From: Methanobacteriota archaeon
GTDB lineage: Archaea > Thermoplasmatota > Thermoplasmata > SG8-5 > JAGLSY01
Direction of reading: 5' to 3'
Assembly (NCBI GenBank): GCA_020697715.1
Contig: JAEHCO010000001.1
Location: 384,001-448,000, forward strand
DNA length: 64,000 nucleotides
A program made the position numbers and the translations under genes. The notes under the pieces were generated by a model. That model was not told where the DNA came from. It did not search any database and saw only the letters and a list, made by a program, of their open reading frames with translations. Of the stretch, positions 4,578-61,371 are shown piece by piece (the stretch's first letter is position 1; each line of letters begins with the position of its first letter).

Positions 4578-4761
4578 CCATTACACCTCTTGTCGTCCCA
4601 ATAGAGATGATTTTATAAATATCTTAGGGAATTGATCATATTTTCTGTAATTGATTTTTTTTTCCTTTCACTGGCCATAAAATTAACAATAGTTCTTTAT
4701 TGCGCTCATTAGTATACGGGATAGCCAGTACATTATTATAAATATTAACTCTAATGTTAAA

Positions 4762-4872
4762 AAAATAAGAGCCATTCGGGAGTTCAAATCTCCCAGTCTT
4801 GAATTAATAAAAAATAAGAGCCATTCGGGAGTTCAAATCTCCCAGTCTTGAATTAATAAAAAATAAGAGCCA
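4762..4872. repeat. 49-bp tandem repeat (2 copies plus partial) built from tRNA-Thr 3' end and inverted T-arm
   Basis: TAAGAGCCA at 4766, 4815, 4864; unit AAAATAAGAGCCATTCGGGAGTTCAAATCTCCCAGTCTTGAATTAATAA. Confidence 0.95.
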
Positions 4873-4977
4873 CTGGGGAGATTTGAACTCCCGACCTACT
4901 GATTACGAATCAGTCGCTATATAGCGCTTGAATGCATCATGAATCGGCGCATTCAAATACCGCTAAGCCACAGTGGC
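4868..4977 (-). tRNA. tRNA-Thr(CGT) with 38-nt D-loop intron (4921-4958)
   Basis: GCCACTG/CAGTGGC acceptor, ACTGA-TTCGTAA-TCAGT, GGGAG-TTCAAAT-CTCCC; intron junction AGCG/CGCT helix with GTA and ATA bulges. Confidence 0.95.
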
Positions 4978-7520: not shown

Positions 7521-7619
7521 AACCTCGAGGGATAAACATTGGGAAAGTATTTTAATGTCCTCTTATTGTGGGGATTCATAATATGGCATATCTCGGTATG
7601 CTGTGATTGAAAAAGTCCA

Positions 7620-7776
7620 TATGGGCCCGTAGCAGACAGGCCCGTAAATACCAAAACAATAATATTTGGGGCTGTAATTGACCTACGTGCCCGCAAATAA
7701 GAAAACAATACAATATGGGCCCGTAGCCGACCTACGTGCCCGCAAATAAGAAAACAATACAATATGGGCCCGTAGC
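7620..7776 (+). repeat. ~49-bp tandem repeat of the tRNA-Lys 5' end (2 exact, 1 degenerate units)
   Basis: GACCTACGTGCCCGCAAATAAGAAAACAATACAATATGGGCCCGTAGC at 7680 and 7729; ATGGGCCCGTAGC also at 7621. Confidence 0.92.
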
Positions 7777-7839
7777 TTAGCTAGGTAGAGCGCCCGGCTC
7801 TTAACCGGGTGGTCTTGGGTTCGAATCCCATCGGGCTCG
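7766..7839 (+). tRNA. tRNA-Lys(CTT), intronless
   Basis: GGGCCCG/CGGGCTC, CCCGG-CTCTTAA-CCGGG, TTGGG-TTCGAAT-CCCAT (one U-U mismatch). Confidence 0.93.
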
Positions 7840-7843
7840 TATT

Positions 7844-8001
7844 TATTTTTTATATTTGTTAAGAGCCCTAATGCCAGTGACGTGGATTCTGGTGGGATTC
7901 GAATGAAGTTCGACGAGTGATTTCAATGCATACCATTGAAATCACGAGCAAGACTGGGATGCTGGAAGTAGACCAGTCGATGATCCCATCGGGCTCGTAT
8001 T
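7844..8001 (+). mobile_element. tRNA-linked structured element, copy A, ending in a 19-bp duplication of the tRNA-Lys 3' end
   Basis: ATCCCATCGGGCTCGTATT at 7825 and 7983; core homologous to 29264-29399. Confidence 0.75.
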
Positions 8002-8015
8002 CTTTTATTCCAAGA

Positions 8016-9056
8016 TCAAGGTTTTGCATCCTCATTTGGTAAGGGCATTCTATATGTCATCCCCAGGGGCGGATTTATTATGAAACCCATCTTCTCATAG
8101 AGCTTCATCGCGCCGTGGATGTTCTCCGTATCCACTCCAAGCGCGGCCTCGGTCATGCCCTCTTCCTTAATCCTGTGAAGTGCCTTGGCAATGAGTGCAC
8201 TGGCTAGGCCTTTCCCGCGCCAGGGCTTTGCCGTGCTGATGAACTCCACATATCCACGCTTTCTGTTATATTCCTCATTCTCCTCTTTAACTATGAATGG
8301 CTTGACCTGGCCCACCACATCATCACCATGCCAGGCGATCTGCCACAAATGTGGTTGAAATACCTTACTGCTGATGAAGCCATCAATTGCCTTGTCTCGG
8401 TCCATTTCAAAATATCCCCAGCTGTCCTTGAAAGCGTCTATATGAGTGTTAATTATCTGGCGGTAATGTTCAGGAATTACGGGTCGTAATTCCACTTCTT
8501 CTGGAAGCTCTATATTAGGAATGTTTTCAAGATCTGACCTGATCATCTCCGCGCCGTAGCGCACGATCTTGTAGCCGAGTGATTCGTGGATATTCCTTGC
8601 ATGTTTTTCAGTTTCTAGAAGTTCTGTCTCGAAAACCTTTTCTCCATCTGGGTGGGCCTTCGATTGCTCGATTATACGTTCCTGTAGATAAGATATCATT
8701 GCTTCACGAATGCCGAGATTTCTCATTTCTGGAACAATTTGTGTGACGAACCAATATCTGGTGAGACCTGATGGTTCCCTGACCCAAGAATGCCTTCCGT
8801 ATCCCACAGTCTTTTCTTCAGATTCTACAATTAACACATCCTGGCTCAGGTCGCAGTTCGGTATTCTGGGCCATCTTTTTTCCAGTTCCTCCACTGTCAC
8901 GGTCGCATCTATGCAATCTGCTTCCTTGCATTGATTGAACACATCGACGATCCCCACAAGGTCTTCTTTCCCAGCATAGTGCCTAAATTTTATATTCATA
9001 CCTTTTGAAATTCCATCATATTCGATATATCTGTGATCCGTCATCTTATCACTCAC
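8016..9056 (-). CDS. tandem GNAT acetyltransferase
   Basis: Two GNAT halves; PWRGKGLASAL, LGVDTEN, AMKLYEKMGF. Confidence 0.92.
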   Translation of the reverse strand: MSDKMTDHRYIEYDGISKGMNIKFRHYAGKEDLVGIVDVFNQCKEADCIDATVTVEELEKRWPRIPNCDLSQDVLIVESEEKTVGYGRHSWVREPSGLTRYWFVTQIVPEMRNLGIREAMISYLQERIIEQSKAHPDGEKVFETELLETEKHARNIHESLGYKIVRYGAEMIRSDLENIPNIELPEEVELRPVIPEHYRQIINTHIDAFKDSWGYFEMDRDKAIDGFISSKVFQPHLWQIAWHGDDVVGQVKPFIVKEENEEYNRKRGYVEFISTAKPWRGKGLASALIAKALHRIKEEGMTEAALGVDTENIHGAMKLYEKMGFIINPPLGMTYRMPLPNEDAKP

Positions 9057-29149: not shown

Positions 29150-29249
29150 GGGCGCGTGGCCTAGCCAGGATATGGCGACAGCCTCCTACTCCGACTGCAA
29201 AGTCAGAGGAGCAAGCTGTAAGTCAAGGGTTCGAATCCCTTCGCGCTCG
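29150..29249 (+). tRNA. tRNA-Arg(CCT) with 25-nt canonical intron (29189-29213)
   Basis: GGGCGCG/CGCGCTC, ACAGC/GCTGT stem, BHB CTCC/GGAG, AAGGG-TTCGAAT-CCCTT. Confidence 0.95.
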
Positions 29250-29263
29250 CTTATCTTTTATTT

Positions 29264-29399
29264 TGTATTTGGAGAGTGAGAAGGATGAGAACGTAGTTCG
29301 ACGAGTGATTTCTGAGTGTGGCGAAGAAATAACGAGCAAAACCTGGATGCCGAAGGTAGACAGGTTGATGATCCCTTCGCGCTCGCTTATCTTTTATTT
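29264..29399 (+). mobile_element. tRNA-linked structured element, copy B, ending in a 29-bp duplication of the tRNA-Arg 3' end
   Basis: ATCCCTTCGCGCTCGCTTATCTTTTATTT at 29235 and 29371; core homologous to copy A. Confidence 0.78.
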
Positions 29400-54477: not shown

Positions 54478-54553
54478 ACGGGTGTGGTGTAGCCTGGTAT
54501 CACTTTAGCTTGCCAAGCTAAGAACTCGGGTTCAAATCCCGGCACCCGTACCA
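54478..54553 (+). tRNA. tRNA-Gly(GCC), encoded CCA, A1-U72
   Basis: ACGGGTG/CACCCGT-A-CCA, TTAGC-TTGCCAA-GCTAA, TCGGG-TTCAAAT-CCCGG. Confidence 0.93.
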
Positions 54554-54718
54554 TTCTATTCTCGTCATATTTTCATCGTACTCATAGAACGGCACTGATC
54601 TTTGTTGAGATATGCTCAATTCTTTTATTGTGATTTTAATTAATTCAGAATTGGGCTGGCGCGAAAAATGAGAATGAACGTCGATAAGTGCTCATTTTTC
54701 CCATCCCGGCACCCGTAC
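54554..54718 (+). mobile_element. degenerate tRNA-linked element, copy C, ending in a 16-bp duplication of the tRNA-Gly 3' end
   Basis: ATCCCGGCACCCGTAC at 54536 and 54703; ATGAGAATGAACGTCGA resembles the left end of copies A/B. Confidence 0.55.
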
Positions 54719-61127: not shown

Positions 61128-61223
61128 AATCTGGACTTAGCTTAGACTGGCTGAATGATTTTCCCCTTGCGGGGTAACTCATTCTCGCACAATTCCTGTG
61201 GGATCATGCGAGGAGCGGCTGAC
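61128..61223 (+). pseudogene. interrupted duplicate of the tRNA-Tyr 5' half
   Basis: CTGGACTTAGCTTAGACTGGCT (61131-61152) + ~60-bp double-hairpin insert + GAGCGGCTGAC (61213-61223). Confidence 0.7.
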
Positions 61224-61251
61224 CGAATAAAGGATTGCTCATTCGCCAAAT

Positions 61252-61371
61252 CCGGACTTAGCTTAGACTGGCTAGAGCGGCTGACTGTAGTTAAGTACCC
61301 CGGAAATGCTAAGCGCATTTCCGGTATCAGCCGATATCAGCAGATCCCCGGTTCAAATCCGGGAGTCCGGA
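61252..61371 (+). tRNA. tRNA-Tyr(GTA) with 45-nt canonical intron (61291-61335)
   Basis: CCGGACT/AGTCCGG-A (C1-G72, A73), GCTGA/TCAGC stem, CCCGG-TTCAAAT-CCGGG; imperfect BHB central helix. Confidence 0.93.

Follow-up and report, generated by a model that had tools for sequence, protein, structure and literature searches.

The 64,000-nt stretch of archaeal DNA analyzed here (the window) carries, directly 3′ of its tRNA-Lys(CUU) gene and on the same strand, a folded segment of ∼160 nt (copy A; Table 1) that ends in a repeat of the 3′ end of that tRNA. We consider it probable, with moderate confidence, that copy A is an archaeal member of the kind of element known in Escherichia coli as tRNA-linked repeats (TLRs): a structured RNA module in the tRNA trailer that spreads by recombination at repeated tRNA ends. 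Copy A is intergenic. A convergent open reading frame of 346 aa terminates at 8016, and a T-rich run (8002 to 8010) directly follows the right repeat. Judging from its letters, the T-rich trailer that precedes the folded part may act as an oligo-T terminator of the archaeal type, as a TATA-like stretch, or as both. Within the 5′ strand of the closing helix P1, GAGCCC (7863 to 7868) is antisense to the acceptor 3′ strand of tRNA-Lys and GGTGGGAT (7891 to 7898) is antisense to its T-stem/T-loop, with a 22-nt insert between the two. Of the two arms of hairpin hp0, the left is antisense T-loop and the right repeats tRNA positions 53 to 58 in the sense direction. The core comprises a 12-bp hairpin (hp1) and a second hairpin (hp2) that contains two G·A/G·A internal loops.

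TABLE 1 Parts of the tRNA-linked segments and sites of a second repeat family (positions in the window unless a contig of the same genome is named)
Feature	Position	Strand	Evidence
Copy A, folded segment	7841..8001	+	
Host gene of copy A, tRNA-Lys(CUU)	7765..7840	+	aragorn; Rfam tRNA 63.2 bits
Copy A, left repeat: tRNA-Lys positions 59-73 plus 3 nt of trailer, ATCCCATCGGGCTCGTATT	7825..7843	+	Exact 19-nt repeat, spacing 158
T-rich trailer/spacer after tRNA-Lys	7841..7862	+	Sequence
Copy A, closing helix P1, 5′ strand	7863..7898	+	MFE fold pairs with 7983-7996; ungapped extension count
Copy A, hp0, TCGAAT-GAA-GTTCGA	7899..7913	+	Alignment and MFE fold
Copy A, core half 1: CGAG, hairpin hp1 (7917-7945), CGAGCAA	7914..7951	+	Alignments and MFE fold
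Copy A, core half 2: hp2 GACTGG-GA-TGCT-GGA-AGTA-GA-CCAGTC, linker GATG	7952..7982	+	Alignments and MFE fold
Copy A, right repeat (P1 3′ strand): tRNA-Lys positions 59-73 plus 3 nt	7983..8001	+	Exact repeat ATCCCATCGGGCTCGTATT
Host gene of copy B, tRNA-Arg(CCU), 25-nt intron after position 37	29150..29249	+	Rfam tRNA 49.5 bits
Copy B, same parts as copy A	29250..29399	+	Fold; alignment; R2 77.5 bits
Copy B, P1 5′ strand, GAGTGAGAAGGAT	29274-29286	+	
Copy B, hp0	29287-29301	+	
Copy B, core up to GATG	ending 29370	+	
Copy B, right repeat, 29 nt identical to 29235-29263	29371-29399	+	
Third tRNA-trailing segment, after tRNA-Gly(GCC)	54554..54718	+	Ends in 16-nt copy of tRNA end
Second family, sites in the genome (G000)	C11:818043, C11:474511, C22:215106, C22:239231, C29:104736, C29:127544, C32:19068, C30:5868, C1:213		
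Second family, behind tRNA-Ser(GGA)	C11:558604		
Second family, behind a tRNA-Leu	C11:45930		

A first-pass annotation of the window had described copy A and a second segment behind a tRNA-Arg gene (copy B) as homologous and non-coding, and sequence, alignment, and fold all supported this description. The 18-mer AGTTCGACGAGTGATTTC, common to both copies, was present solely at 7907 and 29295, even with 3 mismatches; chance would yield 0.04 matches, and 2 matches were reached in 1 of 100 shuffles. In both copies it is followed by the further shared pieces ACGAGCAA and GATG plus ATCCC. The hp2 stems covary as had been stated, copy B reading AACCTG-GA-TGCC-GAA-GGTA-GA-CAGGTT. The antisense copy of the host T-arm was recovered at 7891 (GGTGGGATTCGAA), with the GAGCCC antisense to the acceptor as an additional piece. 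Direct copies of the host 3′ end were found at all three tRNAs for which they had been reported: tRNA-Lys (19 nt, at 7825 and 7983), tRNA-Arg (29 nt, at 29235 and 29371), and tRNA-Gly(GCC) (16 nt, at 54536 and 54703 to 54718). All three duplications begin at T-loop position 59. The host gene of copy B is missed or mislabeled by aragorn (given as tRNA-Ala), and its intron is absent from the orthologous gene in a congener (G003).

Copy A folds at −57.4 kcal/mol (z = −5.79), a value matched by 0 of 200 shuffles, and copy B at −36.5 kcal/mol (z = −3.78). Alignment of the four close copies with MAFFT (94 columns) yielded a four-way junction of P1, hp0, hp1, and hp2, in which 8 of 30 predicted pairs keep pairing with both sides changed. 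When 29 units were aligned, 95.5% of paired cells were retained as pairs and 24 of the 30 pairs had changed on both sides, and slid controls retained 28 to 51% as pairs; this larger alignment was fitted to the covariance model and is therefore biased in favor of structure. All nine pairs of hp1 showed changes on both sides in the 29-sequence alignment. G·U pairs outnumbered A·C pairs by 49 to 6 in the family alignment, which identifies the tRNA-sense strand as the one that folds. Together, these data show that the tRNA-sense strand adopts a four-way junction in which the tRNA end pairs with its complement to form the closing helix.

The arms of the units are fitted to their hosts. The host is known for 40 distinct units: the right arm of hp0 matches host positions 53 to 58 exactly in 34 of them, and 28 have an exactly complementary left arm; for hosts with a GTTCAA T-loop, the left arm is TTGAAC in five of five cases. 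P1 runs 0 to 17 bp past its five inner pairs into the acceptor strand (G·U, 28, versus A·C, 12). Right repeats measure 15 to 38 nt in the units of this genome other than A and B. Since CCA is not encoded in the tRNA genes, the tRNA-derived part of the repeat amounts to 15 to 16 nt. From these arm matches, the unit is a fold-back copy of host positions 53 to 73, with the core interrupting the sense arm at 58/59.

This architecture bears directly on the explanation offered in the first-pass annotation, a non-autonomous, ssDNA-folding element that has the tRNA T-loop as its target and relies for its movement on an HUH/Y1, GIY-YIG, or tyrosine recombinase enzyme encoded elsewhere. C-GNA-G triloops and tandem G·A pairs are especially stable in ssDNA, so the fold could also form at the DNA level, and the hp0 loops are such C-G-closed triloops in 27 of 40 units. 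However, the arms match each host, including the T-loop variant, and elements with fixed ends that move by cut-and-paste or peel-and-paste cannot carry arms of this kind. With the further evidence on copy location and enzymes given below, we regard movement as an ssDNA element as unlikely.

A second alternative holds that the units are scars of integrative viruses or plasmids, which recombined in the T-loop by means of tyrosine integrases, each supplying a replacement tRNA end, and whose interior was later deleted. An identity block from T-loop to 3′ end and stacked units at one tRNA are the classic footprint of tRNA-integrating elements, and the archaeal units match that footprint in both respects. 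Like T-loop-integrated islands and viruses, they show a T-loop-to-3′-end duplication, an intact tRNA on the left, a displaced end on the right, and stacking. In contrast to such islands, the archaeal units are only ∼100 to 160 nt long, contain no genes or integrase, adopt a covarying fold, and include an extra inverted copy of the tRNA end. Their covarying core is conserved across Thermoplasmatota and bacteria, unlike random deletion remnants. The lone gene for a tyrosine recombinase (PF00589) in this genome lies on another contig (C29), beside none of the unit loci, and an exact search of viral contigs for the hp0 pattern returned five stretches, none of them beside a tRNA. Differences of kilobase size after tRNA-Arg(CCG) in two related genomes (G003 and G001, described below) would suit a history of integration and deletion, which we nevertheless judge improbable for the family.

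We next consider how closely the family is tied to tRNA genes. The genome of origin (G000; 2.12 Mb) has 44 tRNA genes by aragorn, and a copy of the tRNA's own end was found downstream of 13 of them, compared with 2, 1, and 1 in control placements, in agreement with the proposed enrichment at tRNA 3′ ends. A copy was counted if at least 12 nt of the last 30 nt of the tRNA recurred on the same strand within 700 nt downstream; among the 13, tRNA-Ser(GCU) reflects a neighboring tRNA-Ser, and tRNA-Met has only a short fold-back. A covariance-model search had also been suggested. The model built from the four close copies (R1) found eight units in G000 and six in the congener G003, every one of them behind a tRNA (Lys, four Arg, Gly, two Leu, and Glu). 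With strict filters, R1 had no match in 59 further relatives (61 genomes searched, including G000 and G003). A broader model (R2) detected units in 9 of 151 Thermoplasmatota genomes, with up to 10 copies per genome (10 in G112). In other Thermoplasmatota, 20 of the 24 places examined have a tRNA directly upstream; of the remaining four, one belongs to an array as its second unit, one shows a tRNA-Ile in clipped view, one site is N-masked, and one has no explanation. An nhmmer search of G000 with the core returned no credible copy away from tRNAs.

The exact hp0 pattern, searched in one genome per species, occurred in at least 117 stretches, and the matches listed comprise 80 loci with 82 motif sites. 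Of these listed matches, 19 sites, spread over 17 loci, are preceded by a tRNA on the same strand. Archaeal loci account for most of them: among the matches listed, 13 of 16 archaeal loci are behind a same-strand tRNA, with a copy of the tRNA end further on, and 4 of 64 bacterial loci are behind a tRNA (in Patescibacteria, Blautia, Verrucomicrobiota, and a gammaproteobacterium). With 4 of 64 at tRNAs, most bacterial hp0 matches look like chance or coding sequence. Copies A and B are single units; tandem arrays occur in G000 at tRNA-Leu(CAG), tRNA-Leu(UAG), and tRNA-Arg(CCG), and elsewhere at four further loci (L086, L098, L104, and L053). R2 had no match in the trailer of tRNA-Gly(GCC) at E values up to 10 with filters off, and we therefore left this trailer outside the core family; it may be a decayed or different unit. 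Taken together, the linkage counts, covarying stems, and host-fitted ends bear out the proposal that the segments form a conserved non-coding family with a structured fold and a link to tRNA 3′ ends. The patchy spread across genomes (9 of 151) fits a selfish element as well as it fits a functional RNA, and this spread, which reaches bacteria, and the tandem arrays are also what movement as an ssDNA element would lead one to expect.

Units turn over within the genus. The first-pass annotation had called for empty or variable sites among relatives, and one such site is tRNA-Leu(UAG): in G000 a unit separates the tRNA from an older element of a different type, and in the congener G003 the older type alone is present. 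The G003 unit at tRNA-Lys differs in hp2, and its right repeat departs from the tRNA at 2 nt, a drift indicating that identity between repeat and tRNA is not always maintained. In the congener G002, the parts that remain at tRNA-Lys are the antisense arm, hp0, and CGAG. Truncated or decayed copies were seen at tRNA-Lys, tRNA-Gly, and tRNA-Arg(CCG), and in two genomes truncated units terminate the arrays at tRNA-Arg(CCG). Conversely, species differences in the acceptor 3′ strand of tRNA-Glu and tRNA-Leu(UAG) are mirrored by the right repeat. Identity of hp2 between orthologous loci was 48% (Lys) and 42% (Arg CCU), and between some different loci, within or across G000 and G003, it was 76 to 85%. 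Because hp2 is closer between some different loci than between orthologs, modules move between loci. These comparisons show that units are gained, lost, truncated, and arrayed in tandem and that hp2 modules are swapped between tRNA loci. Presence, absence, and truncation among congeners are equally features that an ssDNA element would produce. Contigs from four metagenome runs contained no empty site; they held tRNA-sized pieces only, plus the unit of one relative, in which 42 nt of the spacer is missing.

Two rearrangements were noted at unit-bearing loci. At tRNA-Arg(CCG), the flank that follows the unit lies within 300 nt in G000, is ∼1.3 kb apart in G001, and in G003 is separated from a truncated unit by ∼3.4 kb (G003:C48:10630-13996; L198/L195). 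In the ∼1.3 kb of the G003 stretch that was inspected at its two ends, we saw ordinary-looking sequence and no right repeat. In G003, tRNA-Glu(CUC) and its unit form a cassette of ∼250 nt whose orientation to the neighboring genes is reversed (L192, G003:C22:45450-46500, compared with G000:C11:155400-155800), and the inverted cassette is adjoined by ∼430 nt of extra GC-rich sequence.

No candidate mover was consistently found among the unit-bearing genomes. Cas1 (PF01867) was detected in neither of two, and reverse transcriptase (RVT_1) and the TnpB-type domain (PF07282) were detected in none of five. A Y1 transposase gene is present in two of five (G000 and G003), which speaks for an ssDNA element, as does a second structured family in G000 that lies between 19- to 50-nt duplications of gene ends (see below). 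Y1 is missing from the other three, however, including G112 with its 10 copies. These genomes are 78 to 95% complete, so the absence of an enzyme is not proven by such counts. Longer copies carrying an open reading frame, which the first-pass annotation had suggested seeking, were not found, and the 3.4-kb stretch at tRNA-Arg(CCG) in G003 has no right repeat in the part inspected. Since the arms are matched to the host, no enzyme accompanies the units consistently, and the G000 copies sit only at tRNAs, the proposal of a non-autonomous ssDNA transposon that depends on an enzyme gene located elsewhere was not upheld. As a separate observation, the sole Y1 (HUH) match of G000 lies on the minus strand of a 26-kb contig (G000:C1:16359-16709; L176), ∼350 nt from a 90-nt tRNA-Phe call.

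The domain counts also weigh on a guide RNA reading, in which the core and its 3′ tRNA-sense tail would act like an omega-RNA that guides a nuclease or recombinase, GTTCGA serving as target-adjacent motif. The units do consist of a structured scaffold followed by a tail of 15 to 19 nt equal to the tRNA-gene sequence after GTTCGA, and a TATA-like run in some copies is placed at a distance from which transcription might start near the core. Against this stand the missing TnpB-type domain (none of five genomes), the pairing of the tail in P1 in most copies, and the harm that cutting essential tRNA genes would do to the cell. We consider a guide function very improbable.

Membership in known classes of small elements was assessed separately. 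IS200/IS605-type PATEs and REP/REPIN sequences are likewise small, protein-less, hairpin-rich, multicopy elements with a strand-specific fold. However, their ends are constant, their target motif is short, they lack a long duplication, and they are scattered between genes, whereas the archaeal units are host-fitted and lie behind tRNAs. With host-specific ends, no copies away from the tRNAs of G000, and Y1 in two of five genomes, the units were not assigned to PATEs or REPINs. Casposon-derived miniature elements were set aside on the basis of Cas1 (neither of two genomes) and of a repeat of 15 to 38 nt as opposed to a fixed duplication of 14 to 15 bp. Neither did we class the units as integrase att scars, there being no neighboring integrase and the interior being a conserved, covarying fold, or as guides of the omega-RNA/TnpB type (PF07282 in none of five).

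The class that the units do resemble is bacterial. E. coli has been known to carry tRNA-linked repeats since 1978 (PMC8144298, citing Egan and Landy 1978 and Rudd 1999). As summarized in that source, their members include the 178-bp repeats of tyrT-tyrV, which give RtT RNA (rttR), and rrA, rrB, and rrF behind 5S rRNA; 22 units are distributed over ten loci in tRNA or rRNA operons, with one to five per locus, and the last 18 to 19 bp of a unit equal the 3′ end of the gene immediately upstream (PMC8144298). The same source describes TLRs as without known function and reports that rrA, rrB, and rrF are transcribed by read-through, are processed, and bind Hfq and CsrA in vitro (PMC8144298). Among the papers searched, the phrase "tRNA-linked repeats" appears in only two, neither of which deals with archaea by its title or abstract.

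By position and layout, copies A and B share the defining features of this class. Both sit directly behind a stable-RNA gene in the same orientation, the 3′ end of each unit equals the 3′ end of the upstream gene (19 nt in A, 29 nt in B), and the number of units per locus falls within one to five, single for A and B and arrayed at other loci of G000. The internal build agrees as well. In E. coli K-12, tyrT-tyrV holds four units, each of which starts with the antisense tRNA-Tyr end GGGGAAGGAT and continues with GAGAA, AAGGTTCGA (sense 50 to 58), CTCGAG-hairpin-GAGAGAG, further hairpins that include CCCGAAGGG flanked by GA, and AATCCTTCCCCCACCACCA. The tyrT units show the order of parts seen in the archaeal units, reading the antisense end, GGATGAGAA, GGTTCGA, CGAG-hairpin-GAGAG, GA-stem-GAA-stem-GA, and AATCC plus the tRNA end. 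Copy B also carries the E. coli-type GGATGAGAA and the GA-stem-GAA-stem-GA hairpin. In both E. coli and archaeal units the T-loop copy is split after GTTCGA, and in the MFE fold of the E. coli unit, as in that of the archaeal units, pairing of the tRNA end with its complement closes a multi-branch junction. A unit in a gammaproteobacterium (L107) bridges the two groups, having hp0 and ACGAGCAA as in copy A and a 15-nt hp2 stretch identical to the E. coli unit. In contrast to the E. coli TLRs, the archaeal units have an archaeal host and no encoded CCA, an hp0 with a 6-bp stem and 3-nt loop versus a longer hairpin, one hp2 versus two hairpins, and turnover within one genus.

Sequence-model comparisons were less decisive. 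Applied to the tyrT units, R2 found four of four on the right strand, with bit scores of 15.6, 15.3, 11.8, and 11.3; in the window, scores of up to 15.1 bits arise by chance. The Rfam model for RtT (RF00391) matched the four E. coli units; at E values up to 1 to 10 it hit neither the window nor any of six other loci. At gathering cutoffs, Rfam returned six tRNA hits only across the whole window, and for region 7700 to 8050 only chance-level hits at E values up to 10. Given these weak statistics, we filed the element under the TLR kind by its defining features and not by homology score. Common descent of the archaeal units with RtT appears probable rather than demonstrated: similarity is statistically marginal, and the motif order and the bridging unit L107 argue for it. 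The first-pass annotation had rated the element as the best candidate in the window for an undescribed system. That rating was not supported, since the units fit the published TLR definition and motif order, and E. coli repeats of this kind had already been named there as background.

These comparisons place units of TLR build, with common motifs, behind tRNAs of Thermoplasmata and at four bacterial loci of different phyla. The TLR family now has a defined fold, a four-way junction formed with the tRNA end and its complement and with a T-loop copy split at 58/59. An E. coli curiosity that has gone unexplained for more than 45 years becomes a comparative problem open to testing. For annotation, short copies of a tRNA 3′ end behind tRNA genes need not be integration scars.

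Each unit runs from a trailer through antisense host positions 73 back to 53, a 3-nt loop (mostly GNA), and sense positions 53 to 58 into a two-hairpin core (YGAG, hp1, CGAGCA or GAGAG, and hp2), and closes with sense positions 58/59 to 73 plus trailer. If the units are indeed structured trailer modules of the TLR kind, the folding strand would be an RNA produced together with the tRNA or shortly afterward. Its closing helix would display the same 3′ end as the tRNA, and the tRNA end-processing enzymes might then release and protect the unit, as has been proposed for the E. coli units. Turnover would arise from host recombination between repeated tRNA ends and not from an element-encoded enzyme. 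Strong T-runs after the tRNA in this genus, which could stop read-through, count against the RNA reading, and recombination at repeats does not account for arms fitted to a new tRNA. A bolder proposal, which we put forward as a single claim and hold to be doubtful, is that the TLR-type units of Archaea and of several bacterial phyla belong to one cross-domain class of self-propagating, protein-less elements. Such units would rebuild a fold-back copy of the host from T-loop to 3′ end around a core at 58/59, their arms being re-templated on new tRNAs by an undescribed copying process (template switching at the palindromic TTCGAA, or an RNA-mediated step), and their transcripts would mimic the acceptor end to engage RNase P, RNase Z, or the CCA-adding enzyme.

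Other repeats were noted in the same genome. The second structured family in G000 has the form CCGAGCGAGCAG, stem, CAGCACAGCGAGG and lies between exact flank duplications of 19 to 50 nt, with no antisense arm; several copies are at gene ends, in either orientation, and two lie behind tRNAs (Table 1). Another unit type, at G000:C22:278826-279320 (L017) and G000:C28:52421-52700 (L015), starts with GGATTCGA(A/T)AGTAGTA, ends in a tRNA-Leu copy from position 62, and is stacked behind both tRNA-Leu genes; a hairpin AGATGCGACTT...ACGCATCT precedes some copies.

Within the window, repeats were also seen at other tRNA ends. A stretch of 64 nt at 4760 to 4925 is repeated at period 49, contains the T-arm-like GGGAGTTCAAATCTCCC, and adjoins a partial tRNA match on the minus strand (4876 to 4925, 31.4 bits). 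At 61133 to 61272, a 20-nt copy of the 5′ part of an intron-containing tRNA (61252 to 61371) lies 121 nt upstream of it. Finally, 5′ of tRNA-Lys (7619 to 7764), a promoter-like stretch and the first 11 bases of the tRNA (GGGCCCGTAGC) are repeated, as 48 nt at period 49 plus a 15-mer 94 nt away. The pattern is equally present in the congeners G003 and G002 and looks like a 5′-end counterpart of the 3′ repeats.
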